Positions 2,399-63,239 of a stretch of DNA of 64,000 nucleotides are shown piece after piece. This DNA is from Marinilabiliales bacterium (GTDB taxonomy: Bacteria > Bacteroidota > Bacteroidia > Bacteroidales > ML635J-15), in assembly GCA_002869385.1 (NCBI GenBank), contig PKTB01000007.1, positions 80,729 to 144,728 of the forward strand, read 5' to 3'. Both the position numbers and the translations under genes were made by a program. Below the pieces are notes generated by a model that worked only from the letters and a program-made list of their open reading frames with translations, did no database searches and was not told the origin of the DNA. Positions within the stretch are counted from its first letter, which is position 1, and every line of letters begins with the position of its first letter.

Positions 2399-3241
2399 AT
2401 GAAAAAGTTAATAATTCTAGTAGCAATTATTTTATTATAAATTGTTTCATTTAGTCAGGAAAATGCATCTTTACATTTTGATAAAAAAAGCATTGATTTG
2501 TCTGGTGGTTTATGTTTAGGAGTAATGCGTGACCTAGGGGTTTCGCCTCTTTATTATAGTAACATAATTCCTGTATTTGAGGCGAGATATAATAAGATCA
2601 CAGAAAAAAGATTTTTCGATGTTGATTTTAGTAGTTTAAATGGGATGCAATTTAAAATAATTAATGACCAATTTTATAATAATACAATAAATGCTATAAA
2701 TTTAAAATTTGAATATGCTTGGTATTCTGGCTTCTATAGTTTGGAAGGAATTAGTGATTATGTAGGGATGTCTGTATCCAACTTTGCAGATATGCGAGTA
2801 AATGAAAGCTTTTCTAATGCAGCACTTTCTTTTGATAATTTAAGCAATATTGCTTTAACGTACACATTGTTTAAAAAGCTAAACAGACCTCAAAAAACAA
2901 AAAAGTTTTTAGGGCTAATTAAATTCGATCGTAAAGAAAAAAACTATTTGTTTGCTTTTAAAGTTGGGATTCCATTATATACATTGATCTATAGGCAGGG
3001 TTATACTAATCCAGGCAACTCAACTGCCAATATTGAAATCCTTTTTCCAGGATATGAATTAGTTGGGAAATTCCTGACAGGTTTGGACACAGATATCTCG
3101 TTAACAAGACTTTTAAAGAACGGGAACGGAATAAAAATCAATTATAATTGGATGGCTTTCAGTTCTGGCAAGAACGAAATTAACAGCTTAAATTTTTCAC
3201 AGCATTCAATAATGCTTGGACTTAGTTTTAAATTAAATTAG
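2399..3241 (+). CDS. Hypothetical secreted/outer-membrane protein. Its signal peptide is interrupted by an in-frame TAA at 2438-2440.
   Basis: ATG 2399 gives MKKLIILVAIILL*IVSFSQENASLHFDKKSIDL. This runs in the same frame into ORF 2498-3241. Confidence 0.45.
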
Positions 3242-4386: not shown

Positions 4387-4848
4387 ATGGCTGAAGATGG
4401 TGTTGTTTTGATTATTAATGGGGATATTACAATTAAGAATAATTTAAATGAGATACAAATAAATGGAGAAATTAAAATTGACTTAGACAATTTGGATAGC
4501 ATTACCAAATCAAAGATTTTAGGTTCTGGAGCTTTATCTATATCAGGATTGTTAATTGAAAAAGGATTAAAAGAGGAGATTGAGGATAAAATAAAAATAA
4601 AACCTGAGATTTATCCCAAGCAAGTTACAGATCATATTAATATTATCTGTGCAAATTGTGAAGCAAATACATTCGAAATTGCTATTTTAAGCACGAATGA
4701 AGAAATAATTCACAAAGAAACATTTAATTTACTCCAGAAACAGATTAAAATAATTATGCCATTAGACGAATTGCCAATAGGAGCATATGTCCTTAAAGTA
4801 AAGGTGAAAGATACTTGCATAACTAATAAATTTGTGAAGATTGGATAG
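4387..4848 (+). CDS. Hypothetical protein with a T9SS-CTD-like C-terminal beta-sandwich
   Basis: The C-terminus (EIYPKQVTDHINI...GAYVLKVKVKDTCITNKFVKIG) resembles Por secretion tails. No other motif was recognised. Confidence 0.35.
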   Translation: MAEDGVVLIINGDITIKNNLNEIQINGEIKIDLDNLDSITKSKILGSGALSISGLLIEKGLKEEIEDKIKIKPEIYPKQVTDHINIICANCEANTFEIAILSTNEEIIHKETFNLLQKQIKIIMPLDELPIGAYVLKVKVKDTCITNKFVKIG

Positions 4849-4977
4849 GTGAATGTGAACTAAAAATTCATGGGTTTGGAAAGGCGCGATATTTATCTTT
4901 CGTGTACCACTTTGTGCTTGAGTGTGTTTATAAAGCCATACGTTTGTATTTCGACAAAGAGAGCGAACAACAAGTTT

Positions 4978-7602
4978 TTATTTTTGAATAATCAGCTTTT
5001 TATTAATCACAAATTTATCACTGATGATATCAATAAAATACAAACCATTTGAATATTCAGAAGTTGATAACGGATATATAGTACCTGAGAATTCTGATAA
5101 ACTATAGCTATTTATTTCTTTCCCAATATTGTAAAATATTTTGATTGTATTTACTTTTTCAATACAATTATTGATGTCAATATTAACAATGTTATTTGCC
5201 GGGTTTGGAAAAAGTGAGATAGAATTTGAAATGTCTTCAATTTCATTAATTCCGACATTTCTGGTTACAGATATATCAAGTAGGTATGATCCAGTTTCTC
5301 CTGTAAAATATGGCGCTACATTAAAAATAACAGTGCCCCCGTTTATGACACTAATATTTGAAGTCATAATGTCATCAAAGTTATCAGACCACCCAGAATT
5401 ATTTTTATAAGAAAACATAACGTCTGCAGTATATGTCTGACCATTTCCACTGTTATAACTGTCGTGAATTCTTGCGTTGATTGAGTAATTATAGCCTGCA
5501 GGCAGGATAATCTTATAGTAGTCTAAATCTGAATTTATATGAATATTTGAACCTATTGTTGTTTTTGTAGCTGTTCCCCCTGAAAAAGATAATGGTAAAT
5601 TGTATGCAGAACCTTCATTATTATTATCTTCATAGATGTCGGGAGATAAAGAGGGGGAAACAACCGTAATATTAATGGGGTTGGAATAATATTGGCCGCC
5701 AACCAAATACCAATTTGAAGAACCATTTTGTAATTCTTCAATTGTTAAAATGTAAGTGCCAGGAGTTGCGATAACAGATGGTGTACTAACTGTTATAAAA
5801 GGGGAAGAATAAATATAACCTTCAGGCAAACCATTTGTTTCATTGATGGTTCCAATTGTTTGAACAAAGTTACCCTCCAAATCATATAAATTTGCCCTAT
5901 AAGAACCATAATATGTGGTGGTGCTGCCATTAATCAAATTAAAATTTACGGATGCTGATTGTCCTTGAACAAAAGTACTCGGATCAATAGCCGAATAAAG
6001 TTGAATATTGTTTGCAGGTGAATTAATGGTGACGTTTATTGGATTTGTATATGATGAGTTCCCAGCTAGAGTCCAATTTTCATTAGGATCCCGATAAAAT
6101 ATTCCCACCTTATAATTATCAGGTACCGTCAGAATGCCTGAATTTGAAAATGTTAACCCATTGGTATAATGGTAGCCCGGCTGTAAAGGGGAACTACCTG
6201 CAGATAGAATTTGAATATAATCGATAAAGTTGCCTGATGCTGTAAACAGGGCAGCACAATAATCACCACTAAAATTATTGGTGCCAGCATTTGTCACATC
6301 CACGTTTACAGTAAATGATTGAGCAAAGTTTACAGGGTTTGGAGAAATTGATATTGAGGAGAACAAGTTGATTGTTGATATAACGCTTCCGGGAACAGGT
6401 TGAATACCGATTAAAGCCTGCTGCCCTTCATTATATGTCCCAGCACCAGCACCAGTCCCGCCAGTACCCGGATTCAAAGCATCAAGGGTGAAAAATCCGT
6501 CACAATATCCTCCCCAGCCCCAATTCATGTGAAAATAATCATTATTATCATATCCATCACAGACAAAAGTATGGCCACCTTGACCAAAACCAGCATATTG
6601 AATTGGCCTTCTGGCATTTAAGTCTGTTTTTAAAATATTTATCCAGTTAGAGTCAGAATAATTATCCCGTTTTAATCCTTGTAGAGTCGTTGGATCATAG
6701 CCAAAATATGTTTTAAATGCATATTCAGAACATTGTTCAGGTGTTGGAGATCCTGAAATAATAACATAAGACCCACTTGAAGTTGGTCCATATCCCATTT
6801 CGACAGCAACTCCACAATGATACATTATTGTTGCAACAGCCGTGTTTGCACCATTAATATTGTTTGGCATTGAGCTCCAATCATATGTTGTAGCGGCAAA
6901 ATTTGCGGATAATGTCCCATATTGATCATGATTATATGAATGAAATCCTGTGCCAGTTGTCGGATAGTTCCAGAATTTCATAATTTGAGCCATGGCAGTT
7001 GCCGGACATCCGGCAACACAATGATATCAATTTGCAGAACCAGCATCAACGTCGTAAGGGCATAAGGCATTTACATAAGGTGATTGTGACCAAGTTGTCG
7101 TAAGCAGAGGATATACACTCATTGTTTCTTTGTCAGTATTAATAGGATACCCGCCCTCTAAGGATTTCCATTCATTTTCAATAAACAGATCGGCTTTATA
7201 GCCATTTATTAATACATCAGTTATTTCCTTTTTGTATTTTTCGATTAGTTTTATGAATGCGGGGGGCAAATTAGAGTCAAAATAACTGCCAGAAAGAGAA
7301 TAACCTAAAATGGGGGTAATATTATCATCTGCCGAAATAATCACAAAACCATCGCTTTGCTCAACATTAAAAATATATAGCAAAGCCGTTTCCTTAATTG
7401 TCTCTTTTTGATTTGCGATTTCATTCGACTTAGCAATATAAGCAAGCGAAAATGAAACTTCGGACAAACTTTTGTCTTTGGCTTTCTGTATGTAGAAATT
7501 TTTAGCAATTTTTAATGCCAATACCGGGTTTACCGGGTTAGTGAAAATATTTAATGTAAATGCACAACCCAATAATAAGAGCAATATTTTTTTTATAAAC
7601 AT
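4978..7602 (-). CDS. C10-family (streptopain/SpeB-like) cysteine peptidase with N-terminal prodomain, pre-peptidase C-terminal (PPC) domain and T9SS CTD. It is interrupted by an in-frame TGA at 7027-7029.
   Basis: This is one 875-codon frame. The sequence ...DAGSAN*YHCVAGCPATAMAQIMKFW carries the C10 catalytic-Cys motif just after the stop. The PPC-like part is DIYEDNNNEGSAYNL...DLDYYKI. The tail is LFPNPANNIVNIDI...GLYFIDII. Confidence 0.8.
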
Positions 7603-7753: not shown

Positions 7754-9169
7754 CTATAATTTTATTATTGGTTGAGTTTTTAAAATGGTTCCATTATTTT
7801 CAATAACAATGAATATCAATCCAGAACTAAGCTGAGACAAGTCTATCATTTGCTCCCCAGTAGTGTGTGGATTAATTTTCAAGTCCATATATAATAATCC
7901 TATATTGTTGAATATTTTTATATTTAAAGTTTCATATGAATTGTCATTGAATTTAATGAAGAGTTTATCATTTGTAGGATTTGGGAATATTTCAATATTG
8001 TAATACTCATTGTCAGTAACAGAGATAATCTTTGATAAATAGAATTCACCATCATAATCAACATTTCTAAGCCTGTAATACAGATAATTATTTGCAGGAA
8101 AAACAGGAGAATAATCTGTAAGAGAATAGAATTGAGTTGTTATTGAATTTCCTTTAGAGTCAACAATGCCAACCACATCAAAATCAATAGAATTATAAGA
8201 TCTCTGAACTTCAAAATAATCAGTATTTAACTCTGATGCAGTTATCCAGGAAAGCAACACATTGTCGTTTTTGTATATTCCGTTAAAATCGAGTAGTGTA
8301 ACCTGTAATGGTGAAGATTCATCTGAAATAGTCCATTTGCTGAAATGTGTTGTGTTTACACTAATTGTTCGAGGATCTGAAGATGAAACATCTTGGGTCG
8401 AACCAATTTGTTCCCAGACGGAATAAGGAGATTCGCTACTCCATATAACAGCGCTGACTGGGTCTTTAGCATTATCAAATTCTGAGAGCCATGAGAATTG
8501 CAAACTACGTCCATTATCAGGAGAAAAATCACTTTCGATTATCCAAGATGCAGATATGGAAGTGTTACTTCCACTTGTAATAATACCTTCTGTTCCATTG
8601 ATTCTAGTAATGGTAAGATTGCCGATGTCATCAGTTCCGCTACTTATCATGCAACCTAAAAAGTCGATTGAATTTGTTCCTATATAACGGCTAGTCATTA
8701 ATGCTTTACCAACTATATAGCTTGTAGATGTTTCTGAAGGAGTTGAAGCTCCAGTATTGAAATATAGAGTATTTAATGTTTCGGGTGTTGAGGAATTATG
8801 TGTGTGTACAATACCGTCTGAAAAAACGAATGAGTTATTAATAGTAATGTCATTAGATAAATATATTCCGGACGGATTATTTATTTCGGCATCATAAAAG
8901 GTAAAAGGACAGGTAGAACTTAGTATGTCCTGGGAGCTACTCCCGTTAAATAATATTTTGGAATTGTTTCTTGATGTAAAAATATTATTATTAATCAGAT
9001 TGTCTTTTATTTTTAAAATGCCTGAAACGTCAATTGTGCCATTATTCTCTATGATACCAGTACTCTGGATAGCGCTGTTTTGCAGAAGGGTTAAATTAGT
9101 TGAAGGAGTAATGAGTATTTGTCCAGATACAGATAAAGAAATGTAAAGAAAAATTAATACTGTGCTCAC
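7754..9169 (-). CDS. T9SS-sorted surface protein of unknown function, paralog of 57049-58317
   Basis: It shares blocks with the paralog (LNTLYFNTGAS, SSRY(I/L)GTN, FSKWT(I/V)SD). Its CTD is IEIFPNPTNDKLFIKF...GLIFIVIE. Confidence 0.6.
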   Translation of the reverse strand: MSTVLIFLYISLSVSGQILITPSTNLTLLQNSAIQSTGIIENNGTIDVSGILKIKDNLINNNIFTSRNNSKILFNGSSSQDILSSTCPFTFYDAEINNPSGIYLSNDITINNSFVFSDGIVHTHNSSTPETLNTLYFNTGASTPSETSTSYIVGKALMTSRYIGTNSIDFLGCMISSGTDDIGNLTITRINGTEGIITSGSNTSISASWIIESDFSPDNGRSLQFSWLSEFDNAKDPVSAVIWSSESPYSVWEQIGSTQDVSSSDPRTISVNTTHFSKWTISDESSPLQVTLLDFNGIYKNDNVLLSWITASELNTDYFEVQRSYNSIDFDVVGIVDSKGNSITTQFYSLTDYSPVFPANNYLYYRLRNVDYDGEFYLSKIISVTDNEYYNIEIFPNPTNDKLFIKFNDNSYETLNIKIFNNIGLLYMDLKINPHTTGEQMIDLSQLSSGLIFIVIENNGTILKTQPIIKL

Positions 9170-9272
9170 GCGAGTAACTCGCGCGCGAGTTTTCGCCTTG
9201 GTCCTTTGACTACCCTCTTCGACTACCCCTTCGACTACCCCTTCGACTACCCCTTCGACTACGCTCAGGACT
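9165..9272. repeat. GC-rich element: palindrome CGCGAGTAACTCGCG plus a 12-13-bp tandem repeat
   Basis: The palindrome lies at 9169-9183. GACTACCCCTTC-type units occur x4 (9208-9260) and end in GACTACGCTCAGGAC. The TTCGAC..GCTCAGG core is the same as at 721-750, 52084 and 62843. Confidence 0.85.
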
Positions 9273-9512
9273 ATATGCTAAAAACGCAATCGAAAGCAAT
9301 GCCTTGATATTGCATGATGATAGAAATTTGCATTAACAATAATTGGTGCACAAATAGTACTTTTAATGCAATAGAGAGGTTGTACTAAGGGTGGCATAAA
9401 ATAAATTGATAAAAAGCCACCACACTTGGTTCCTTTTCGCTGATTTGCAGCTCTTTACATTTTATTTTTTGAACCATAATTACTAATTTTAATATTAAAG
9501 AAAATTTGAATT

Positions 9513-10736
9513 ATGGAAAAAAGAACAACACTAAATTTATTGTTTTATGTTAGAAAAACAAGATTGCTAAAAAATGGGGAAGCTCCTGTTTATATGCGAA
9601 TTACAGTTAACGGAGTTAGAAAAGATTTAGCACTAAATCAAGGGATTAATCCAAAATTGTGGGATTCTGTTAAAGGAAAAGCAAGTGGTAATTCAAAAAA
9701 CGCTCGTTCATTAAATTTGTATTTTGAAAGCATTAGAGTGCAGTTGCGTCAACACATGATAAATATGAGAGAGGAAAACATTCCAATTACTGCATTGACA
9801 TTAAAAAATAGATTTCAGGGAAAATCAACAAACGCAAAATACCTTATTGAAATGTTTAAAGAACATAATGAGAATATTCAAAAGCTTTCAGGAATTGATT
9901 TTGCACCCAATACAATAAGTAAATACAAAACAACACTGTTTTACACACAACTTTTTCTAAAATTGAAGTACAAATGTGATGATATAAATATAAAAGATGT
10001 AAATCATACATTTTTAACCAACTATGAATATTATCTCAAAACTGAAAGAAAATGTTCCCACAATACCGCAATGCGATATATCAAAGATCTTAGAAAGATT
10101 GTTAGAATTGCTCTTTCAAATGGATGGATTGGTAAAGACCCATTTGCAAATTATAAAATAAAATTTCATAAGGTTGACAGAGGTTTTCTAACTGAAGATG
10201 AATTACATGCTATTATAAATAAAACATTTACCATAAATCGATTAGAACAAGTTAAAGATTGTTTTTTATTTTCTTGTTTTACCGGATTGGCACATATAGA
10301 TTTAAAAAGATTAACACCTCAACATATTTTTAAAGATTCAAATAATAAATTATGGCTAAAAGTAAATCGTAAGAAAACAAACAGCTTATGCAGTGTTCCA
10401 TTATTACCAGTTGCTTTACAATTGATAGAGAAATATGAAAACAATCCATATTGTGTTGAAAATAATTTGTTATTACCTGTTCTTTCCAATCAATCGATGA
10501 ACGCATATCTAAAAGAGATTGCAGATATTTGCGGAATAACAAAAAGGCTTTCAAGCCACTTGGCAAGACACACATTTGCCACAACTATTACTCTTAATAA
10601 TGATGTCCCAATAGAAACTGTTAGCAAAATGCTTGGGCATTCTTCAATTAGTGTCACAAAAATATATGCCAGACTCCTAGACAAAAAAGTTGGTCGGGAT
10701 ATGCAACATCTTAATGATAAATTTACTTTATCTTAA
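9513..10736 (+). CDS. Tyrosine site-specific integrase of the Bacteroidota mobile-element type, with an N-terminal arm-binding domain
   Basis: The protein is 407 aa. The N-terminus LNLLFYVRKTRLLKNGEAPVYMRITVNG is typical of Bacteroidota integrases. Catalytic motifs are HLARHTFATT and LGHSSISVTKIYARL. Confidence 0.85.
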   Translation: MEKRTTLNLLFYVRKTRLLKNGEAPVYMRITVNGVRKDLALNQGINPKLWDSVKGKASGNSKNARSLNLYFESIRVQLRQHMINMREENIPITALTLKNRFQGKSTNAKYLIEMFKEHNENIQKLSGIDFAPNTISKYKTTLFYTQLFLKLKYKCDDINIKDVNHTFLTNYEYYLKTERKCSHNTAMRYIKDLRKIVRIALSNGWIGKDPFANYKIKFHKVDRGFLTEDELHAIINKTFTINRLEQVKDCFLFSCFTGLAHIDLKRLTPQHIFKDSNNKLWLKVNRKKTNSLCSVPLLPVALQLIEKYENNPYCVENNLLLPVLSNQSMNAYLKEIADICGITKRLSSHLARHTFATTITLNNDVPIETVSKMLGHSSISVTKIYARLLDKKVGRDMQHLNDKFTLS

Positions 10737-11761: not shown

Positions 11762-12229
11762 CTATAAAGACTTTGGCCTATATTTTTTCAAATATTCATC
11801 TAGCTTTAAGATTAACTTTAAATTAAGTCTCTTAAGTTTTTTTTCGTTTTTCTCATTCTGTATTTTTTTTGAAATCGTGTGTATCTTATAAATTTCATTA
11901 TAAATTTCAGGATAATTTGTTCCACCAATATCGTAAGTTGTGTATGAATATGTGGAAGCATCATAAATTGCCATTTCTTGTCCAACGTACTCTGCATTAG
12001 AATGGATAAACCATAAAATGTTTGAACATTCCTTCTCAAGTTCTGAAAGGTGCTCAACGTCCTCAATATCAATAGTCTTATAATTATTATAATTCTCTGA
12101 TAAGAAAACATAAAATTTATTTAAATCTGTTTTAGAAATGAGAGTATCTTGATTAAGTGATTTTGCGTCATTTTGAGCAAAAAGACACAATGTTGACATT
12201 GTAAATAGTAGTGTTATTACATGTTTCAT
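11762..12229 (-). CDS. Hypothetical secreted protein (array block 2)
   Basis: It has a signal peptide (MKHVITLLFTMSTLCLFAQ). No family was recognised. Confidence 0.45.
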   Translation of the reverse strand: MKHVITLLFTMSTLCLFAQNDAKSLNQDTLISKTDLNKFYVFLSENYNNYKTIDIEDVEHLSELEKECSNILWFIHSNAEYVGQEMAIYDASTYSYTTYDIGGTNYPEIYNEIYKIHTISKKIQNEKNEKKLKRLNLKLILKLDEYLKKYRPKSL

Positions 12230-12359: not shown

Positions 12360-12923
12360 TTATTCTTCCTGTTCTCTACTATCGAATAAGCTAATTGCTT
12401 TCAAATATTTTTCACCACCAGTTTTGGTCATATCGTATATGAATCCTTCTAGATCTGGGTGCTCAACATTTATCCACTCGACAAGAGAATCCCTTTTATT
12501 AACCCACACATTCCAGTCAACATTAACACTTTCTAATATTTCGATTTCATAAATTCTATTCTCTTTATAGAAAACCTTTTGTTTAGTTATCATTGGATTG
12601 TTACCAAGGAATTCGAAACGTTTTGAATAAGTTGATATAGTTAACAAAACATTATTTTCACTTGAAGATATTTCTAATATTTTTATTTCTGGATTAAATA
12701 CGGAATCCCATTGATAGTATTGATGGAACTCTTCTAAGGAATATGTTTTTTTATAGTCGCCATCAACGATTGAAATGCTATCAGAAAGGTATGGTATAAT
12801 ATATTCATATTTCTTTTTTGCATAGTCATTAAAATAATTTTCTGTAATTCTTATATAATCGCTTTGTTTACATGATATGAAGAATATTATTAGAATTATT
12901 AATATTTTATGATTTTTAATCAT
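12360..12923 (-). CDS. Hypothetical lipoprotein (array block 3)
   Basis: It has a signal peptide with a lipobox (FFISC). No family was recognised. Confidence 0.45.
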   Translation of the reverse strand: MIKNHKILIILIIFFISCKQSDYIRITENYFNDYAKKKYEYIIPYLSDSISIVDGDYKKTYSLEEFHQYYQWDSVFNPEIKILEISSSENNVLLTISTYSKRFEFLGNNPMITKQKVFYKENRIYEIEILESVNVDWNVWVNKRDSLVEWINVEHPDLEGFIYDMTKTGGEKYLKAISLFDSREQEE

Positions 12924-13145
12924 ACTATATGTGTTAGTTAGGTATTTGAAATCTGTTTTAGCGTCTATTTTAAATTCTGACTAATGGTAAAGTTAAGTCG
13001 CTGTATTATAATATTTTATTGTTTTCATAAAATGATGTAATTATTAATGTTTTTTCGCCCTTTTTCGTAAGCAAAAGAATTTAATAAGATTCGGATAAAT
13101 AGATAAATTAATTCACATCTATTGGGGAGAATCTTATGCGTTGAA

Positions 13146-13330
13146 TTGCCCATTACGGTTCGCTCACCTTTGCGATGTTTTGGTAAAGATAAATGAAATT
13201 TATCTTTTATCCAAAATTACGTAAAGGCGCCTGCCGTACTCCGTCCCTCTGAGACTACATACAACAGGCGCCGTAAGGTGAGCGAACCGTTGCTCCGCAG
13301 AGCGTAGGGCTTGCGGAGCAACGGTTTTGC
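13146..13330. repeat. Structured repeat, family A copy 1: nested long inverted repeats
   Basis: There are 15-bp perfect arms, CGGTTCGCTCACCTT (13156-13170) and AAGGTGAGCGAACCG (13275-13289). A 13-bp perfect hairpin has arms at 13287-13299 and 13312-13324. The inner IR is GGCGCCTG/CAGGCGCC. The core is about 85-90% identical to 15331-15490. Confidence 0.85.
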
Positions 13331-13414
13331 AATATGGAAAGTTGGGAATTTTAGAACGCGTTTGTATCCACAGATAGCTAAGCTAATTTGGAAACAAAAG
13401 TTGACGTAACCTAC

Positions 13415-14434
13415 TCAGCCCCAATTTTTTATATTGCATGTTAGCGGCTGGGTTTCATTCAATTTAACAATTGGGTCAACCTTATCCTTTGTTCCCTCAA
13501 TTTGCTCTGCTGCTGCTTTACAACCACCTTTACACTTATCATATTTTTCACAATCATTACAATAATCAGGAATACTTGAAATCCAGCTTAATGAATAGTC
13601 TGAATACAACATATCCTCAAATGAATCATTATAAATATTGCCTAAATTTATCATAGAATGATTGCATAACCTAAAATTACCTTTATAATCTACTGTAAGA
13701 GGTTTCATTTTGGAATCATCTGGACACAGTCCAAAGTGAATGTTTGAATAATCACTTGGATTTATAATACAATGTGGAGTACAAACATTTGAAGTAATTA
13801 TCAATCCATATTTTGCTGCAAGATTATCAATAATATTATATCCTTTTCGTAACTCATTGTGGTTTAAAGTTAACTCTTTATAATGTGGATTATTACTCAA
13901 GTTATATCTATTGACAATTATGGTATTAAGATTATTCTCTTTAAGGAATAAAAATGTGTCCTGTATGGTTGATAGGTTATATTTTGTAAGTATTACTGTT
14001 GGTATAATTCTTCCATTATTTGCTAGAATTAATTTAATATTCTTTAATACATTTTTAAGGTATCCCTCTTTGCCTGACAGGAAATCATAGACTTTTTGAT
14101 TTATTGAATTTAATGTTATTTGAAAATCAACTCCAAAATTTATTAACTCCTTGTATTTATTGTCATTATTGATTGTAGCATTCGTTATTACAGCAACCTT
14201 TGAACCATTTATTTTTGCATGTAATATACATTCAATTAATAAATCTGAAAGCAAAGGTTCGCCACCAGAAATTGTAAGCTGTTTAATTTTAGCTTTGCTA
14301 TACAATTTTTTAATTGTATTAATTGACCGAGAAGAATCTGAATTACCTAGAATAGTTGAATTATAACAATACTTGCATTTTAAATTGCAACTATGGGTAA
14401 TCTCAAAGTTTATATTAAAAAACTGGCTTTTCAT
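13415..14434 (-). CDS. Radical SAM enzyme with a C-terminal SPASM-type Cys cluster
   Basis: The CX3CX2C motif lies in ITHSCNLKCKYCYN. The C-terminal cluster is CNDCEKYDKCKGGCKAAA. Confidence 0.8.
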   Translation of the reverse strand: MKSQFFNINFEITHSCNLKCKYCYNSTILGNSDSSRSINTIKKLYSKAKIKQLTISGGEPLLSDLLIECILHAKINGSKVAVITNATINNDNKYKELINFGVDFQITLNSINQKVYDFLSGKEGYLKNVLKNIKLILANNGRIIPTVILTKYNLSTIQDTFLFLKENNLNTIIVNRYNLSNNPHYKELTLNHNELRKGYNIIDNLAAKYGLIITSNVCTPHCIINPSDYSNIHFGLCPDDSKMKPLTVDYKGNFRLCNHSMINLGNIYNDSFEDMLYSDYSLSWISSIPDYCNDCEKYDKCKGGCKAAAEQIEGTKDKVDPIVKLNETQPLTCNIKNWG

Positions 14435-15003
14435 TCTTTCGGGAGCCTAAAGTGAATTACAATAGTTTTATTCATAATTGTCTTCTTAAAATTTTTGCGG
14501 CCAGGTTTAAATGGTGGCATTAAACTAACTAATCTTAAAGCTTCTTCATCTAAACCGTATCCTTTGCTTTTAAGAATACTTGATTCCATAATATTCCCAT
14601 CCTCATCTATTGTTAAGTTTATAGCAACATTTCCAGATATTTTATTCTCTAAAGCAGATTCTGGATATATAATGTTTTCACGTACAAACTTATTTAGAGC
14701 AATCTGACCTCCTTTAAATCTTGGGTTTTTTTCCCAATTATCATTATCAACAATAACTACTTCATAACACATAGTTACTAAATCCTCTTCCATTTCAACA
14801 TCAATAGTCAGTGTGTAAATTTTACTTGAATCATTTGGGAAATCAACCTTTTGTGCATGTAATGTTTTATTACTTAGAAGTCCAATACCAACTATTATTT
14901 TGAGTTTTACAAGAAAAGGAATTCTAATTCTATCAGTAAGGCTGAATAAAATAGAATACACTAATGAATATATTGATATCTTAATGTTTCTTAGTTTTCT
15001 CAT
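14431..15003 (-). CDS. TonB C-terminal-domain protein (membrane anchored)
   Basis: An N-terminal hydrophobic segment is followed by a TonB_C-like region: PRFKGGQIALNKFVRENIIYPESALENKISGNVAINLTIDEDGNI...LMPPFKPG. An ATGA overlap couples it to the radical SAM gene. Confidence 0.65.
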   Translation of the reverse strand: MRKLRNIKISIYSLVYSILFSLTDRIRIPFLVKLKIIVGIGLLSNKTLHAQKVDFPNDSSKIYTLTIDVEMEEDLVTMCYEVVIVDNDNWEKNPRFKGGQIALNKFVRENIIYPESALENKISGNVAINLTIDEDGNIMESSILKSKGYGLDEEALRLVSLMPPFKPGRKNFKKTIMNKTIVIHFRLPKE

Positions 15004-15289
15004 TTTTCTTGTTTTCTCTAGTAATAAATATTTCTTTTTTCTTTAATCCAATAAGTGAAAATTCTAATTTAAATTCAACTAAAGAATCTGGAATAGAAAT
15101 CTCATAATATCCATTTTTATCTGAGATTGTCCCACCGATATATTTATCATTGTGAACGATTACTACATTTACTCCAATTAAACTTTCTCCGTAAACATCA
15201 TTAACATTTCCTTTTATAATATCCTTCTTGTTTTGACAGTATAAATTACCACAAATCAAAAGAATAAATATAATCAAAATCGTTTTCAT
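14981..15289 (-). CDS. Small secreted CarboxypepD_reg-like domain protein
   Basis: It has a signal peptide and then IKGNVNDVYGESLIGVNVVI...GTISDKNGYYEISIP. It overlaps the next gene by 23 nt. Confidence 0.5.
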   Translation of the reverse strand: MKTILIIFILLICGNLYCQNKKDIIKGNVNDVYGESLIGVNVVIVHNDKYIGGTISDKNGYYEISIPDSLVEFKLEFSLIGLKKKEIFITRENKKNEKTKKH

Positions 15290-15330
15290 TATCAGCTAAA
15301 TTTTTGGTATATTGGTGTTGTCATAACCTT

Positions 15331-15490
15331 GCCGCTAACTGTTCGCTCGCCTTGGCGATGTTTTGGTAAAGATAAATGAAATTTATCTTCTATCCAAAAT
15401 GTGGTAAAGGCGGCTGTTGTACGTAGTCCCAGAGGGACGGATTACGGCAGGCATCGTAAGGATTGCGGAGCAACGGTCTGCGGCATGAAA
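15331..15490. repeat. Structured repeat, family A copy 2
   Basis: It shares GTTCGCTC.CCTT.GCGATGTTTTGGTAAAGATAAATGAAATTTATCTT.TATCCAAAAT...GTAAAGGCG and TTGCGGAGCAACGG with copy 1. The 37-bp middle segment (15414-15450) is the reverse complement of 13231-13267. Confidence 0.85.
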
Positions 15491-15612
15491 CGTTGCGCAT
15501 TACAAAGCACAAACCTATCAAGCCAAGAAGCCGTTGATTAATTGCTATGTCGTTTAGATTTAGCACTATCTGCGCAATGTTTTATGACAGCTTGTTGTGC
15601 CCAGTATTTCAC

Positions 15613-16332
15613 TCAGAATCTGTAGTTTAATCCAATTCCTAGATTCAAATAGCTATAAGGTAAATTTCTGTCTGTATTCGTAAATTTATACATTAAAGTT
15701 CCTCCAAGTTTTACAATAATTTTTAATCTATGTCCTCCAAATCGTATAAATCCAACTGGCTCAAGCAAAATACTTTCGTCATGATAAGTCTTAAATGGTC
15801 CCGTTTCCGAAGTCCAGCCATAATAATTCCTGTCTGTTAGATTTGAATGAAGGTAACCAGCTTTTATTACAAATCCAGTCTCAAAGTTTGAAGAATTACT
15901 TGAAATCTTCCCGAAATTTGCTTGTCCAAAATATAGTTGATAATCACCTAATAGATTTCCTGGATTCACATCTTTGTAGGCGTTTCCGTATCCATAGCCA
16001 AATCCACCATAAAGTTCAAAAACCTTGCTGTATTCTTTATTCTTGTATAATCCAGTCGCTGCTTGAAAATAATATCTATCATCTGCTCCAATACTCCCAA
16101 ATCCTTGAATTGCTAACTTATCAGTCAGTCCGTATGAAACGGTCGCATTAGCAGAAGGAACAAGCGAAATTCCTGCATCAATTCTCAAATCGTTTTTTTC
16201 GCTAATCAACGGAATATCAGTTGTCATAGGATGATAAACTATACAACTTGACATCATAAACGAAATCAAGAGTCCAAAGATTATTAATCTATTTTTCATA
16301 GTTCGAAGGGTTTTTCTCATATTGCGCACCAT
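15613..16332 (-). CDS. Outer-membrane beta-barrel protein (array block 5)
   Basis: It has a signal peptide/lipobox and alternating aromatic/Gly-rich strands. It ends in the canonical OMP terminus ...GIGLNYRF, followed by TGA. Confidence 0.6.
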   Translation of the reverse strand: MVRNMRKTLRTMKNRLIIFGLLISFMMSSCIVYHPMTTDIPLISEKNDLRIDAGISLVPSANATVSYGLTDKLAIQGFGSIGADDRYYFQAATGLYKNKEYSKVFELYGGFGYGYGNAYKDVNPGNLLGDYQLYFGQANFGKISSNSSNFETGFVIKAGYLHSNLTDRNYYGWTSETGPFKTYHDESILLEPVGFIRFGGHRLKIIVKLGGTLMYKFTNTDRNLPYSYLNLGIGLNYRF

Positions 16333-16392
16333 CGATCTGCAGAGCGTAGGGATTGTCTTGTCCTGAAATATGACTGCAGGTTAAACATATGA

Positions 16393-16566
16393 TTAAGCTC
16401 TGTATTTAAACACCATATTTGGGGTTTTATACTTCAAAGATAAGTAAAATCTTTTATTATATATGTTGATAGCATTTTTTAAGCTAAAGAAGCATTGGTC
16501 AAAATATAATTCATCTTTCAATATACCGTTAACACGTTCATCAATATCATTTTCACAACTATGTTT
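16393..16566 (-). mobile_element. Remnant of the 3' end of an IS3-family (rve/DDE) transposase gene
   Basis: The translation is KHSCENDIDERVNGILKDELYFDQCFFSLKNAINIYNKRFYLSLKYKTPNMVFKYRA*. This matches the characteristic C-terminal ERxNGxLKxE...YNxxRxHxSLxYxTP region. No upstream part of the transposase is present. Confidence 0.55.
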
Positions 16567-16605
16567 CATCTGTCATACCTATTTTAATATCGCTTGTTAA
16601 TTCAT

Positions 16606-20990: not shown

Positions 20991-21025
20991 TTTACCTATA
21001 TACCCCGCATTGTATATAGGTGTTG

Positions 21026-22408
21026 TTATAGCCAGTTCTTTTTTATATTCTTATACATATCCCAGATTATCCATTCTAATAATATTTTATTATGCGTACA
21101 CATTCTTTTATCTAATGACCATAAAGAATCACTTGAAATTTTAGCTTGATAAGCACAACCTCCACCACAAATTGCAATAGCTTCGCAATTTGTGCATTCT
21201 GGCATATTTAAAGGATAACGTTTAGACCACTCTTTAAACGATGAGTCAATTGAGATTTTTTCAGCATCCCATAATTCACTCTAATAGTATTCCTTATTGT
21301 AAAGAAATCCTTGACACGGGCCAATTAGACCATCAGGAGTAATAACGATTTGATTACCAATGGCACCACAATCTTTTTGATACAATTTCTTCTCAACAAA
21401 TGGTTTTAATTTGCGCATAATACGGTCTTCATACAAACCATTCTTTCTTAGAAATTCAAAGGTTTCAAGTAAACTTTTAGTTGCAATTGCAATATCAACA
21501 GATTGAGGATTAACAGTTTTAGGAAAGTCTATTAAGAAGTTGAAACCAAAACTATTAAAATTGAACTCAGTCATTAAATGTTTTGTTTGATCTTTTAGTG
21601 TTCTATAATTGTGTTTTCAAATAGTAACTGAAGCACTAATGTTTGAGATGCCTGCATCTCTTAGATTCTTAACACTTTTCTGAATTGATGAATAAGTACC
21701 TTTACCGCTAATGAATGGTCTAACAGAATCAGTAATGTCTTTGTTACCATCAATTGAAATTGATATTTGAACATTATGCTTCTCTAGAAAACTTGCATCT
21801 TCTTTTGTAATATCGGATGCATTCGTAATTATTGATAATTCAACATCATTTTTTAAAATTTCTCTCGCATAGGATATTCCTTTTTTTAAAGTTTTTTTAT
21901 TAAGAAATGGTTCACCTCCATAAAAGATTATCCTTCTATTTTTTTTTGAAATTTTTGAGAAAAGGTCAATAGATTTAGAAACTAAGTCTTCAGTCATAAA
22001 AACTTTTTTCGCATCTTCAGGAATAGAATTCTCAATATAACAATACTTACATTTCAAATTACAACTATCTGTAACAATTAGATACATAATCTGAATATCA
22101 ATGTTGGAGTGATTTTTAATATAAGCAGAATCTATCCGTTCGCGATTATTATACGTCGTAATAATTCCATTCTGAAAGAGAGACTCAAATAGTGATAGAA
22201 TTTTATTCTTATTTAAATCTGGGTTAACATGACAGAAATCTTCAAGAGTTTTATGCTTTTTTAAATTATTGAAAGTCGCAAATGATGATTTGTTTAAATA
22301 AACGACATTCATGTAATATGCATGATAAAGTGCATAAATATTTTCATTTTCATAAACGTGAAGGTATTTAGACTCCTTAATTTCTGTTGTAAAAGTTAAT
22401 TTATTCAT
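21026..22408 (-). CDS. Radical SAM/SPASM peptide-maturase-like enzyme with an N-terminal extension that may be an RRE. It is interrupted by TGA 21617-21619 and TAG 21281-21283.
   Basis: This is one 461-codon frame. The rSAM motif is VTDSCNLKCKYCYI. After the TGA the frame continues (KHNYRTLKDQTKHLMTEFNF...PDGLIGPCQGF). After the TAG it continues with the SPASM motif PECTNCEAIAICGGGCAYQA. Confidence 0.8.
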
Positions 22409-27022: not shown

Positions 27023-27961
27023 ATGAACACAAACAAAATATACGAGCGTATAACAGCTACGATAATCGAAATGTTAGAATAACATAAAAACAATAATTTT
27101 TCTGAGTCATGGTACAGTTTAACTGGAGAAGTATTTGCACGTAATATTGTAACAAATCATGTTTACAATGGGATTAACCAATTATTGTTGGGCTATCTTA
27201 AACGCAAAAGAAATTACACTCTAAACCGTTGGTTAACTTTCAAACAAATTCAAAATTATAATGCCCGAATAATCAAAGGCAGTAAAACTGCAATGGTAGT
27301 TTACACCTCTACTTTGTATATTGATGAAGAAACAGGACAAAATATTACACGAAAAGTTGAAGAACTAATTAGAAAAAAACAATCAATAGATCATTTAAAT
27401 ATTAAGAAAATCGGATATTTAAAAGATTACAAAGTCTTTAATGTAAATTGTGTTGAAGGATTACCAGCGGAGTTTTACGAGCAATCAGAACTTGATAATT
27501 TGATAGAAATTGAAAGAGACGAAAGAGCAGAAAAGCTTGTACATAATCTTGAAGTTAATATTTGTTATGAGGCTCAAAATGAGGCTTATTACAGACCTTC
27601 TGATGATACGATATTTATGCCATTGCCAAAACAATTTGTTTCAAAAGAAGCGTTCTTATCAGTTTTGATGCATGAAGCATCACATTCGACAGGGCATCCT
27701 TCAAGATTAAACCGACCTTTAAACAATGTTTTTGCTTCACCTGCGTATGGATTTGAAGAGCTCATAAGTGAGTTGTCATCAGCCTTTATTATGGCTTATT
27801 TAGGTTATGAAAGTAGAATTACAGACAATGTTGCATATATTGAAAGTTGGTTACAAGCAATGAAGAATGATAAAAAGTTTATTGTTTCAGCAGCATCCCA
27901 AGCACAAAAAGCAGCAGACTATATTTTACAATCTGAAAATGCTAATGAAGTAGCAGCTTAA
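27023..27961 (+). CDS. ArdC-like antirestriction protein, with an N-terminal ssDNA-binding DUF1738-type domain and a zincin metallopeptidase domain. It is interrupted by an in-frame TAA at 27080-27082.
   Basis: The N-terminus reads MNTNKIYERITATIIEMLE*HKNNNFSESWYSL...VYNGINQLLLGY...WLTFKQIQNYNARIIKGSKTAMVVY. The metallopeptidase motif is LMHEASHSTGH. Confidence 0.7.
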
Positions 27962-51812: not shown

Positions 51813-52083
51813 AAAATAAAAGAAAATACATCATATATTGAATTCATTAAAATCAAATTCCAAAAACCTTCAACAAAAGCACATAAAATATTATATAAAT
51901 ATTCATGTCAGAATTCTTGTATTTATTTGCTCTATTTTGTACATTTGTAATGTAATTGCAAAGTGATGCAATTAGGTTCATTTATATCATGTAAAGTATT
52001 GTACATCGCAAGTTGCCAATTCGGTGGCATTGTAAATTTAGAGTTCTATAAGTATTGCAGTAGAGGAGCTTTAAAATTATTTT

Positions 52084-52238
52084 CGACTACGCTCAGGGAC
52101 CGGCTCAGGGACCGGCTCAGGGACCGGCTCAGGGATTGGCTCAGAGACCAGCTCAGTGTGGTAGGGCAAGTAGAGGTACCACACGATAGAATTCCCGATA
52201 AAACGGGATAGACTGTGCGGTAGCGGCGGTAGCGGTGA
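52084..52238. repeat. GC-rich element: 12-bp tandem repeat plus a hairpin unit
   Basis: CGACTACGCTCAGGGACC is followed by GGCTCAGGGACC x3 and degenerate copies. After that comes GGTACCACACGATAG...CTGTGCGGTAGCGGCGGTAGCGG. Confidence 0.85.
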
Positions 52239-52461
52239 TAGAGATAAACAAAATAGTTTATAGAAATAGAGTATATGTTATTTGAAAAAGAGGCTAGTAT
52301 ATTTATCTTTTTTACAAAATGTTTTGTAATGAATCTTGCCAGATGATATAGAATGGCAAGTATTATCATTAGGATTATTTTAATTATAAAGCTCTTATCC
52401 ATAGTGTTTAAGTTTTTATTTGTTTCGAAAATATCATCTATTGTGAAGCAAAGTTTTTGAA

Positions 52462-57048: not shown

Positions 57049-58317
57049 TTAATAGGTTTTAATTATTTTTTTTATTGAAATAGGATTGTTATCCTTGATA
57101 ATACTTAGAAAATAAACTGAAGGGTTGTAAAACTTCATGTCTATCAAAGTTTCATTGTTCTTTATAAAGCCACTGTCAATAATTTTTAAATTGGCATCAG
57201 TTAATATGTATTTATAGTAAACATTGCTTTTGTTGTTGTCTATTTTTATTATTAAATAATTAGTAACAGGATTAGGGAAAACTGAGATATTGTTGTTATC
57301 AAAAGTTGAAAGTTGTAATGGGATAGAATTATCAGACACCGTCCATTTGCCAAATAATGTGGTATTTACAGCAATGTTTCTAGGATTAGAGGCAGAAACA
57401 TCCTGAATTTCACCGATTTCGCTCCATGTTTCATAAGGGGCTGTACTTGTCCAGGCAATGGCATTTGTTACATCAATTTCATTATCAAGACCGGCAAACC
57501 ATGAAAATTGTATCTCGCGTCCGCTTAAAGGTTCATTGTTGCTTGTTATTGTCCAATTTGAAGCAATAGAAGAGTTTTCTACGGTAATAATGCTTTCGGG
57601 GCCGGTAATACGGGTAATTTCGATATTACCTATATCATCTGACCCATTACTGATATTACATCCAAGAAAGGCGAGAGCATTCGTTCCCAAGTAACGGCTG
57701 CTCATTACAGTTTCCCCGAGAATATAAGCAGAGGATATTTCTGTAGGGTCGGATGCCCCGGTATTAAAATACAGCGTGTTAAGAATTTGAGGAGAAGCCG
57801 AATTAAAAGTATTAACATTGCCATTAGATAATGCAAACGAATTGTTAATATAAACATCCGATGATAAATAAACGCCAAAAGGATTATTTAGTTCTGCATC
57901 GTAAAACAAAAGCGGGTCAGTATTACTCTCAAGGCTTTGCGGCGTATTACGGCTGAAAATGATTTTTGAATTGTTATTAGATGTAAAATCTGAAGTATTA
58001 AGCAAATCGCCTTTTGTAATTATTGTGCCGTGGTTGTTTATAGCACCATTATTATTAATAAAATCAGAGCTTACTAGTTGTGCGTTTTGTAATATGTCAA
58101 ACGTGGTAGATGGGCTAATGCTTAGTTGAGCTTGTACGGAAAAGTTAAGTAAAGCGAAAAGAAGTAATAGGATTAAACTGTGTGCCCACGCAAGTAACTC
58201 GCGCGGGAGAGCTGAGCTGACAATGGTACCACACGATACAATCGTGCGGTAGCGATAATGGTACCACACGATACAATCGTGCGGTAGCGATGATGGAATA
58301 TTAAAAAGTTTTTTCAT
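57049..58317 (-). CDS. T9SS-sorted surface protein, paralog of 7754-9169. GC-rich repeat elements are embedded in-frame in its signal-peptide region.
   Basis: It shares blocks with 7754-9169. The CTD is ISVFPNPVTNYLIIKI...SVYFLSII. The N-terminus reads MKKLFNI-[40 repeat-encoded codons]-LILLLLFALLNFSVQAQ. Confidence 0.6.
   Translation of the reverse strand: MKKLFNIPSSLPHDCIVWYHYRYRTIVSCGTIVSSALPRELLAWAHSLILLLLFALLNFSVQAQLSISPSTTFDILQNAQLVSSDFINNNGAINNHGTIITKGDLLNTSDFTSNNNSKIIFSRNTPQSLESNTDPLLFYDAELNNPFGVYLSSDVYINNSFALSNGNVNTFNSASPQILNTLYFNTGASDPTEISSAYILGETVMSSRYLGTNALAFLGCNISNGSDDIGNIEITRITGPESIITVENSSIASNWTITSNNEPLSGREIQFSWFAGLDNEIDVTNAIAWTSTAPYETWSEIGEIQDVSASNPRNIAVNTTLFGKWTVSDNSIPLQLSTFDNNNISVFPNPVTNYLIIKIDNNKSNVYYKYILTDANLKIIDSGFIKNNETLIDMKFYNPSVYFLSIIKDNNPISIKKIIKTY
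58177..58296. repeat. GC-rich hairpin elements lying inside the 5' end of ORF 57049-58317
   Basis: The hairpin CCCACGCAAG-TAA-CTCGCGCGGG lies at 58185-58207. Two tandem 35-bp copies of AATGGTACCACACGATACAATCGTGCGGTAGCGAT span 58222-58291. Confidence 0.85.
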
Positions 58318-62741: not shown

Positions 62742-62842
62742 AGTTAAAAGTTTTAAATTATATTTTAATGTAAAGGTATGTCAGAAAAGAAGGATAGAGC
62801 AAGGGGAGTATGTATAAGTTGATAAATTGAACCACAATACAT

Positions 62843-62983
62843 GCTTCGACAAGCTCAGCAACCGTGCTTCGACAAGCTCAGCAACCGTGCTTCGACAAGC
62901 TCAGCAACCGTGCTTCGACAAGCCAGCAACCGTGTTTCGACCCTTCGATCCTTCGACAAGCCAGGAACTGAAGCTCAGGGATC
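62843..62983. repeat. 23-bp tandem repeat plus degenerate TTCGAC units (GC-rich element family)
   Basis: GCTTCGACAAGCTCAGCAACCGT occurs x3 perfectly (62843-62911), followed by a 22-bp copy. The array then continues GTTTCGACCCTTCGATCCTTCGACAAGCC...GCTCAGGGATC. Confidence 0.9.
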
Positions 62984-63239
62984 AATAGTACACCTTAGGT
63001 TCGTAGGTTTGCTTATGAGGATTAATACCACGAAGGCACGAAGGCAGTACTGTATATGAAGGAAAAGGAAGCAGCTTAGAAATAATGAATACTGAGAAAC
63101 GCAGAGCTGAGAAATGTCACGCAAAGACGAAGAGAAGAAAAATGTCACGCAAAGGCGCAAAGATGCAAAGAGGAAATGTGAGGACTGGCTTGTTCCACTT
63201 CATCAAATCGTGTTGAAACAATGAGTCGCATTGATGGGA

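Follow-up and report, generated by a model that had tools for sequence, protein, structure and literature searches.

The two repeats and the island that carries them

The DNA examined here is a 64,000-nucleotide (nt) stretch, referred to as the window, of contig PKTB01000007.1 from the Marinilabiliales bacterium assembly GCA_002869385.1, and the work concerns two related intergenic repeats within it, copy 1 (C5a; 13153–13323, plus strand) and copy 2 (C5b; 15336–15475, plus strand). The island in which they lie is bordered on one side by a gene for a tyrosine integrase with Arm-DNA-bind_5, Phage_int_SAM_5 and Phage_integrase domains (9513–10736, plus strand), and on the other by an ArdC-like anti-restriction gene (ArdcN plus MPTase-PolyVal; 27185–27961, plus strand), the presence of which marks a transferable element. 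The interval between the copies is occupied by a block of three minus-strand genes (13415–15289), which encode a CarbopepD_reg_2 protein (14981–15289), a TonB_C protein (14431–15003) and a radical SAM/SPASM enzyme (13415–14434). The start codon of the first of these, at 15289, lies 47 nt from position 15336, where copy 2 has its 5' boundary. Further out, a minus-strand gene for a lipoprotein-like protein of 187 amino acids (aa; 12360–12923) has its start toward the 5' end of copy 1, and a minus-strand gene for a 239-aa outer-membrane-like protein of no Pfam family (15613–16332) has its stop toward the last hairpin of copy 2. As set out below, the two repeats are decayed copies of a previously undescribed, GC-rich, four-hairpin module of 160–180 nt that is found in several Bacteroidota.

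The module comprises an outer stem, P1 (13–16 bp), around two long hairpins, P2 and P3, followed directly by a further hairpin, P4. Copy 1, which scores 186 bits against covariance model R1, has the boundary TTACG, ends in CAACG (13319–13323) and carries P1 at 13155–13170 paired with 13275–13290, P2 at 13167–13227 (tip 13185–13207), P3 at 13226–13272 and P4 at 13285–13326. Copy 2 scores 90.5 bits and retains a TAACT boundary, the 5' arm of P1, P2, P3 and a CAACG end at 15471–15475. The interior of P3 is in what is termed below the derived orientation, A, in copy 1 (13231–13267, plus strand), and in the ancestral orientation, B, in copy 2 (15414–15450).

A 37-bp inversion between the two repeats had been proposed from the letters of the window, and was borne out on comparison. 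Positions 13231–13267 of copy 1 are identical to the reverse complement of positions 15414–15450 of copy 2 at 34 of 37 sites, against 22 of 37 in direct register. Since P3 is self-complementary, most of these positions are neutral with respect to orientation, and the informative ones are the 15 at which the copy 2 segment and its reverse complement have different letters. Copy 1 agrees with the reverse complement at 13 of these, with the direct sequence at one and with neither at the remaining one, a pattern that is beyond the reach of chance or parallel point mutation. The first letters of the inverted segment are CTG and the last CAG, and in copy 1 the arms lengthen to GGCGCCTG (13226–13233) and CAGGCGCC (13265–13272), as had also been described. 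The left flanks of the two copies are identical at 73 of 85 positions.

The same sequence-only reading had copy 2 lacking the partner strand of its outer stem and one arm of a hairpin. This is so, the missing parts being the 3' arm of the outer stem and the 5' arm of the last hairpin, although the deletion (point at 15461/15462) removes 31 nt and not the 32 nt first given. Its endpoints are the imperfect direct repeats CGTAAGG and CGTAGGG. A substitute outer stem could form after the deletion between 15330–15343 and 15472–15485 (TGCCGC..CTGTT with AACGG..GCGGCA), and the plus strand of copy 2 still folds 22 kcal/mol better than its minus strand. Additionally, a truncated third copy had been placed beside an IS3 remnant. 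A 17-nt fragment of the P4 loop, GCAGAGCGTAGGGATTG, is found at 16339–16355 (plus strand), where it is cut off beside a transposase-like fragment; by our own estimate some 0.03 matches of this type, with one mismatch or fewer, would be expected per genome. The open reading frame (ORF) of 58 aa beside it (16393–16569, minus strand) gave a weak match to rve_3 (E 0.007, below the cut-off), such that an IS3 origin is plausible but weakly supported.

A conserved, strand-asymmetric module in Bacteroidota

The source genome (G000) holds, besides copies 1 and 2 and the 16339 remnant, an intact copy at G000:C7:8217–8400 and a decayed one on contig C18. The fold of the intact copy on the plus strand has a predicted energy of −105 kcal/mol (z = −13.1 versus 200 shuffles); that of its opposite strand, at −85 kcal/mol, is 20 kcal/mol worse, and the plus strand contains eight G-U pairs versus none on the minus strand. 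The close copy in a related genome, G030, behaves similarly (−97 and −82 kcal/mol for the plus and minus strands), as does copy 2 (−73 and −51 kcal/mol), and the plus strand is the better-folding one in four of five lineages. Conversely, copy 1 folds to −86 kcal/mol (−85.8) on the plus strand and −95 kcal/mol on the minus strand, and flipping its P3 back in silico returns these values to −99 (−98.6) and −83 kcal/mol, respectively. The flip has thus shifted wobble pairs to the opposite strand, at a cost of ∼13 kcal/mol on the strand that normally folds better.

The polarity of the change is apparent from the other copies, which were collected and tabulated by orientation as had been suggested at the outset. 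The P3 segments of copy 2, the intact C7 copy and the G030 copy are identical to each other at 30–34 of 37 positions in direct orientation, and that of copy 1 matches all three better when reverse-complemented. Since these three, and all P3 copies from other lineages, are in orientation B, copy 1 represents the derived state; among ∼18 copies in six genomes the P3 flip is limited to this one copy.

Close relatives of the module are very rare. A search with model R1 of 57 genomes of the family and 400 of the order found copies only in G000 and G030, and a scan of all GTDB representatives for the P4 stem pattern found G030 as the sole true member, the 22 other loci, mostly of Planctomycetota, matching in the stem only. 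More distant members were found by covariance model: one copy in G617, of another order; eight in G890, of another class, six of which lie on the same strand within 20 kb of contig C7; three shorter copies in G1188, of the same genus as G890; and weak matches in G888, of the same phylum but another family than G890. With one representative taken per lineage, for five lineages, 96.1% of cells in the alignment pair, and compensatory double changes are seen in 37 of the 67 pairs, a level reached by none of 500 shuffles, with slid controls giving at most 7. The three close copies alone are not significant in this respect (63 of 500 shuffles reach their level), and the covariation becomes decisive only when the distant members are included. 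One G-U pair in P2 is kept in all five lineages. Conservation of primary sequence is seen in YAACG ahead of P1, in GCGAAGU in P2, in CGAAGU(C/U)C in P3 and in the P4 loop.

The covariance analysis and Rfam comparison that the sequence-only reading had proposed yielded strong covariation for a structured element and no known family: no Rfam match was obtained in the whole window at gathering thresholds, and the 13000–16500 interval gave only two chance-level matches (E 1.4 and 5.8). The P4 and P2 motifs had no matches in pattern scans of viral contigs, a metagenome scan with the P2 tip returned two chance matches only, and blastn against plasmids and phages returned nothing. No description of the module was found in the literature searched.

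The placement of the module is constant. Every copy checked, in six genomes, lies between genes of the opposite strand and is antisense to its neighbours, with its 5' end facing a start codon and P4 facing the stop of the preceding gene. The distance from the 5' end to the start codon is usually 7–120 nt, being 7 nt for one G1188 copy (G1188_b), 28 and 30 nt for the G890 copies at 21930 and 15185, 47 nt for copy 2, 55 nt for the G030 copy, 98 nt for the intact C7 copy and 110 nt for the G617 copy; the exceptions are copy 1 (230 nt), the G890:C14 copy (405 nt) and the G890 copy at 2076 (>1 kb by the ORF list). The neighbouring genes are unrelated between copies and are of accessory or defence type. 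They include an OLD-type ATPase, a Cas2-like protein and Mrr-like and RES proteins at G000:C7, a NACHT NTPase in G030 and, on reading of the translations, Wadjet-like, PIN and AbiE-like genes in G890. Three consecutive spacers of the window array carry the module, as do six positions within 20 kb in G890.

Several further observations concern these loci. Decayed copies that consist mainly of P2 are located 50–75 nt upstream of a gene start at G000:C18:34789–34843 (minus strand) and in G030:C62 (L011), and the gene-sense strand of their P2 reads TTTG-N19/20-TAT(C/T)TT(T/C)A, resembling the −33/−7 promoter of Bacteroidetes. Contig C7 of G890 (L065/L066) contains a second repeated intergenic module of ∼130 nt (3080–3207, 12095–12222 and 21005–21149), which directly follows P4 at one locus and occurs without the four-helix module at two others. 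The array has mosaic spacers made up of repeated modules, and its noncoding frames are 86–92% conserved versus 58–76% for the PIN genes between them. On contig C14 of G890 (L074), a minus-strand gene at 4408–5244 encodes a 278-aa tyrosine recombinase with a match to the 'XerA / integron integrase' model NF040815 (227 bits); it is divergent from a plus-strand defence-type array of OLD-type ATPase, Schlafen/AlbA_2-like, toxin-antitoxin and restriction-modification genes, which holds one copy of the module.

Comparison of paralogous loci within G890 indicates that the module is present or absent as a discrete unit. Upstream of one PIN gene the empty locus reads GCATTACTGG-CAACG-TGTTTGTGTATG, and the paralogous filled locus reads GCATTACTGG-CAACG, followed by the 160-nt module and then CATCAACG-GTTTTGTATAAG; at the level of the site itself, GG-CAACG-TGTTTG in the empty locus corresponds to GG-CAACG, 160 nt and CATCAACG-GTTTTG in the filled one. 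Another gene has three paralogues, of which one is filled and two are empty, giving three filled-versus-empty comparisons in all. The left edge is always YAAC-G, and the right end is CAAC-G, TAAC or CATC-G. The module cores in G890 are 96–98% identical, against 75–92% for the adjoining noncoding flanks and 58–76% for the PIN genes, which indicates that the cores are either younger than the sites or homogenised. In one G890 copy a deletion between ACG repeats has removed P4 and nothing else, and this, with the 31-nt loss from copy 2 between 7-nt repeats, shows that hairpin-driven slippage occurs at these elements. An attempt at an empty-site comparison through orthologues yielded nothing, the flanking OLD-type ATPase and epimerase having no homologues in related genomes. 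A semi-conserved motif, AT(G/T)NNNNN, is present 8–13 nt before YAACG in all lineages, G030 and G890 having the identical ATGAAGCACAAC. Empty sites carry it as well, implying either a target of ∼13 nt or an element longer than the 160-nt core; ATGAAGCACAAC is not enriched in G000.

Single-stranded DNA, RNA or a recombination site

Taken as a whole, it seems probable that the repeats belong to a conserved mobile module that acts as folded single-stranded DNA (ssDNA), and that the peculiarity of copy 1 is a fixed accident of template switching. Action as ssDNA in some form, considered by itself, is favoured by a slight margin over its absence. The module would move, or be copied and pasted, as a unit bounded by YAAC-G and CAAC-G, acting as folded ssDNA, and could do so in either of two capacities that we consider about equally likely. 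The first is that of a non-autonomous element moved by a single-strand transposase of the HUH/Y1 type; the second is that of a priming or transcription signal, similar to Frpo or ssi, on the transferred strand of an integrative element, which would serve the gene just downstream.

The tips of the hairpins bear on the choice between DNA and RNA. The motif S-C-G-N-A-G-S (GCGAAGC, GCGTAGC, CCGAAGG or GCGGAGC) caps P2, P3 and P4 on the plus strand in every lineage, the sole instance at a tip on the other strand being the flipped P4 of G617 described below. Such motifs form extraordinarily stable DNA mini-hairpins, and are found in the G4 origin, in ssiA of RSF1010 and in the single-strand promoters of phage N4 (PMC13037366). 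Additionally, between YAACG, where the conserved unit begins, and the divergent start codon there are only 7 nt in G1188_b and 28–65 nt in several other copies, which leaves little or no room for a promoter in the sense of the module. The tips and the lack of promoter space together favour action as DNA over action as RNA.

With regard to the transposase capacity, genes for an IS200-like Y1 transposase (PF01797 above cut-off) are present in all six module-bearing genomes versus six of 14 control genomes. The module resembles IS200/IS605 derivatives (PATEs) and REP/REPIN elements (PMC3597680, PMC6006769, PMC7290912) in its strand-specific hairpins, its fixed tetranucleotide left boundary (YAAC) and similar end, the near-identical copies within a genome and the patchy phylogenetic distribution, and it may further resemble them in the absence of a variable target duplication and in filled and empty sites with precise edges. 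It differs from them in being one compact four-helix fold rather than two subterminal hairpins, and in its clustering in islands at a constant place upstream of genes. As a separate observation, the Y1 genes at G000:C24:51130–51474 and in G030:C250 (L078) have hairpins on their flanks whose stem is (A)GTCCC ... GGGAC(G), and the 5-bp stem GTCCC/GGGAC is common to the P3 tip and these IS200 hairpins in G000 and G030 but not in G890, G617 or G1188. This shared stem may be a coincidence or a recognition hairpin.

The module can also be compared with Frpo and ssi elements, the ssDNA promoters and priming signals of the leading regions of conjugative elements (PMC11541004, PMC13037366), to which no sequence similarity was sought or seen. 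These too are strongly folded elements of 100–300 nt, several homologous ones of which lie upstream of co-directional genes, and their folded strand is the template strand of the genes, as is true of all module copies checked. The six same-orientation copies of G890:C7 and the setting of the module in an integrative element with an ArdC-like gene are further points of likeness, and ssi-type signals too carry mini-hairpins, CCGAAGG/GCGAAAGC (PMC13037366). No oriT or relaxase was identified. However, the stem of the module has no recognisable promoter boxes, most of its neighbouring genes are of defence or accessory type and not of anti-defence type, and it is a three-way junction with an added hairpin rather than one long stem.

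A number of findings sit less comfortably with action as folded, mobile ssDNA. The copies of G1188 fold slightly better on the opposite strand. The G-U/G-T asymmetry and the covariation would also fit an RNA, the retention of a P2 G-U pair in five of five lineages is a classic RNA signature, and the alignment from which the covariation was scored was fitted to the structure of the model itself. The Frpo-like capacity is weakened in that inspection of the non-template arms of P2 and P1 revealed no Bacteroidetes-type −33 TTTG/−7 TAnnTTTG arrangement facing the gene in the folded duplex, the motif being present only in a double-stranded reading. Moreover, the array and the ArdC-like gene of the island lie on opposite strands and could not both be templated by a single transferred strand. 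The HUH capacity is weakened in turn by the lack of an autonomous partner with matching ends, comparison of the Y1 transposase flanks with the module ends having given only chance-level matches of at most 17 nt. Finally, the loss of P4 alone in one G890 copy and the deletion in copy 2 mean that the empty sites could themselves be slippage deletions between CAACG repeats, as opposed to targets that were never filled.

Among the alternatives, that which best withstands the evidence, while still unlikely, is that the plus strand encodes a structured small RNA (sRNA) of ∼170 nt, with P1–P3 as its body and P4 as its terminator, acting in trans or as an antisense insulator between cassettes. The strong strand asymmetry in wobble pairs, the conserved P2 pair, the heavy covariation and a U-rich stretch after P4 in some copies are as might be expected of such a gene. 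However, there is no match in Rfam, P4 departs from the canonical pattern of intrinsic terminators, and the close approach of YAACG to the divergent start codon would deny the module a promoter of its own. The tips are GNA triloops typical of DNA mini-hairpins, as opposed to GNRA or UNCG tetraloops, and the genes alongside are unrelated from copy to copy.

Other roles for the sequence were considered in their own right. No clear sigma-70-type promoter was found at the module. An ATG in the P2 tip opens ORFs of between 4 and 70 codons that are not conserved among copies; the junction strands, at 0–3 nt, provide no hammerhead core; and in place of a retron msr-msd arrangement, the flanking ORFs of the protein-scanned copies are on the opposite strand, none of them encoding a reverse transcriptase. 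Coding potential, a ribozyme and a retron were rejected on these grounds.

It is improbable that the module serves instead as an element of the neighbouring messenger RNA, read in the sense of the genes as an intercistronic terminator, a stabiliser or a 5' untranslated region, or as a plain double-stranded promoter, with the partial copies keeping the promoter-bearing P2. The constant place of the module, just past the previous stop and, in most copies, 7–120 nt ahead of a start, would suit such a role, as would the occurrence of TTTG-N20-TATCTTTA within P2 on the gene-sense strand of three copies and the survival of mainly P2 in the decayed C18 and G030:C62 copies. Yet the gene-sense strand folds 13–24 kcal/mol worse in four of five lineages and has C-A mismatches opposite the G-U pairs of the other strand; by inspection, conservation of the promoter-like motif does not extend to G890, G617 or G1188, and the motif is a frequent one in this genome, at 0.41 per kb per strand.

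A comparably poor prospect is a site like the attC of integrons, which would be folded from the bottom strand in an integron-like cassette system of Bacteroidota with exchange at an AAC/GTT core. In the module as in the attC sites of sedentary chromosomal integrons, structured repeats are placed between co-directional cassettes with the folded strand antisense to the genes (the better-folding strand of the module in four of five lineages, and the bottom strand of attC) and apparently with AAC/GTT edges, the boundaries of the module being YAAC ... GTTR ... CAAC. The module occurs at junctions of co-directional blocks of unrelated genes, as in the six G890 copies within 20 kb and the three consecutive spacers of the window; copies within one array are near-identical, as in chromosomal integrons, toxin-antitoxin cassettes are present in the array, and conservation is higher in the noncoding frames than in the intervening genes. 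The XerA/IntI-like recombinase divergent from the defence array of G890:C14 would add to the resemblance. Nevertheless, no IntI was found: the integrase of the window, which is of the Arm-DNA-bind_5 type and occupies the array's 3' end, reaches 38 bits on TIGR02249, and the G890:C14 recombinase reaches 216 against the 265-bit cut-off of that model, its match being split in two with the middle of the IntI profile left out. The module has four helices, as a three-way junction with a hairpin, in place of one bulged hairpin. The other spacers of the window array have no core motif in common with the module, many junctions have no module, cassettes are of several genes, and the module is present or absent alone and without a gene.

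Origin of the flip and meaning of the module

Whether the difference in copy 1 is fixed was assessed, at the level of consensus sequence, with independent assemblies whose radical SAM protein is exactly that of the window. Copy 1 is in orientation A in ENA ERZ794999, JGI 3300007102 and Logan SRR5894289 and SRR5894287, and copy 2 is in orientation B in both contigs that reach it (ENA ERZ794999 and JGI 3300007102). The Logan contigs stop within a 35-nt stretch that is identical in copies 1 and 2, as is predicted for de Bruijn assembly. For the C7 copy, ERZ794999 and ERZ794998 give an identical sequence. No coexistence of orientations at one locus was seen at the consensus level in the window and the four other assemblies. 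The flipped segment is 92% identical to its counterpart in copy 2 and the unflipped left flank 86%, and this similarity in divergence points to one old event. We conclude that the flip in copy 1 is most simply read as such a single event, now fixed, with no sign of active switching at the consensus level.

As to mechanism, the flip could have arisen as a one-off intrastrand template switch, or by recombination, across the 8-bp stem arms during replication, and a template-switch origin is considered most likely. The in-place inversion of a hairpin interior, as described in the sequence-only reading, is correct, the block 13231–13267 being the reverse complement exactly between GGCGCCTG and CAGGCGCC. 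The reading had offered template switching at a hairpin and site-specific inversion as alternative origins, and only the former, or recombination, fits. In bacteria, short inverted repeats are an established site of template switching (PMC5941160). The perfect arms of copy 1 are compatible with arm correction. Position 5 of the arms, which is a C-G pair in copy 1, is G-G, G-A or A-U in other copies; the position is thus variable in the family, and the argument from perfect 8-bp arms is accordingly a weak one. The 31-nt loss from copy 2 would represent a separate slippage accident rather than a programmed switch.

A second interior inversion is present in the family. The P4 of G617 and that of G1188 match at 18 of 21 positions (15 contiguous) when one is reverse-complemented, versus 14 of 22 with gaps in direct alignment, and since G000, G030, G890 and G1188 all have the GNA tip of P4 on the plus strand, the G617 hairpin is the flipped one. 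Interior flips therefore recur in this family, which points to rare mutation rather than regulation; the idea of the sequence-only reading gains support in general terms from this independent event, but active switching is not seen at the consensus level. The G617 copy is located on contig C333 (L056; 1501–1675, minus strand), where P4 is followed by the P1 5' arm sequence GGTCCGGCGGCT again and then by another P4-like hairpin, suggesting a tandem or nested partial copy.

Small inversions inside hairpins are documented in bacterial quasipalindromes and plastid genomes (PMC5941160, PMC6824564, PMC12928735), and share with the present case the in-place reverse complement with retention of the stem, the perfect arms of the flipped copy and the recurrence at stable hairpins. 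In the present case, unlike those, the hairpin belongs as one helix to a conserved module of several helices, and the wobble pairs go to the wrong strand, such that the change is probably damaging as opposed to neutral.

A programmed flip-flop, in which a recombinase such as the nearby integrase reversibly inverts the 37 bp to give two functional states per locus, is very hard to credit: inverted repeats do bound the segment, a tyrosine integrase gene does lie 2.4 kb away and the G617 P4 provides a second interior inversion, yet each locus has one orientation in all assemblies, the ∼17 other copies checked in six genomes share one orientation, the flip ruins pairing on the conserved strand and the segment has diverged to nearly the same degree as its flank. 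Known invertases handle spacers far larger than the 31 nt that separate the 8-bp arms.

Two further features of the window were noted. Between 10415 and 17434 it differs from the four other assemblies of the locus at 12 positions, always with A/T in the window and C/G elsewhere. One such difference, at 17190, creates a stop that splits an M43 peptidase gene, which is intact (481 aa) in the other assemblies, and apparent pseudogenes in the window may consequently be artefacts of assembly or damage. Other GC-rich intergenic islands in the window, which has a GC content of 32%, are located at 628–855, 9150–9293, 52048–52245, 58167–58290 and 62826–63003. They include tandem 12-nt units (CTTCGACTACCC, GCTCAGGGACCG and related ones) together with a hairpin, GGTACCACACGAT-N-ATCGTGCGGTAGC, that occurs repeatedly, and are unrelated to the module.

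The inversion by itself is a hairpin mutation of textbook type, and its value here is that of a natural marker of polarity: since the P3 flip moves the wobble pairs to the other strand, it speaks for selection on one strand of the element. Both window copies are damaged members of a new, conserved and strand-specific module of Bacteroidota islands. The comparisons show the inversion and its polarity, the family with its fold and orientation rule, and the presence or absence of the module as a unit, whereas template switching, action as DNA and function are inferred. More speculatively, the module could be the signature of an undescribed single-stranded cassette-handling system in Bacteroidota, a template-strand signal heading each accessory or defence cassette in integrative islands, a view that we would back only tentatively and consider doubtful at present. 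In such a system the module might bring a primase or RNA polymerase to the incoming strand, as an analogue of Frpo or ssi built from DNA mini-hairpins; alternatively, YAAC-G might serve as a crossover site for exchange by a recombinase other than IntI or by an HUH enzyme. The element shows heavy covariation in at least five Bacteroidota lineages and is absent from Rfam, and the covariance model lets annotators mark cassette junctions in these genomes. If action as ssDNA is true, the module would provide a handle on how the islands of Bacteroidota are primed, expressed on entry or assembled, questions that are well studied in proteobacterial plasmids and integrons.

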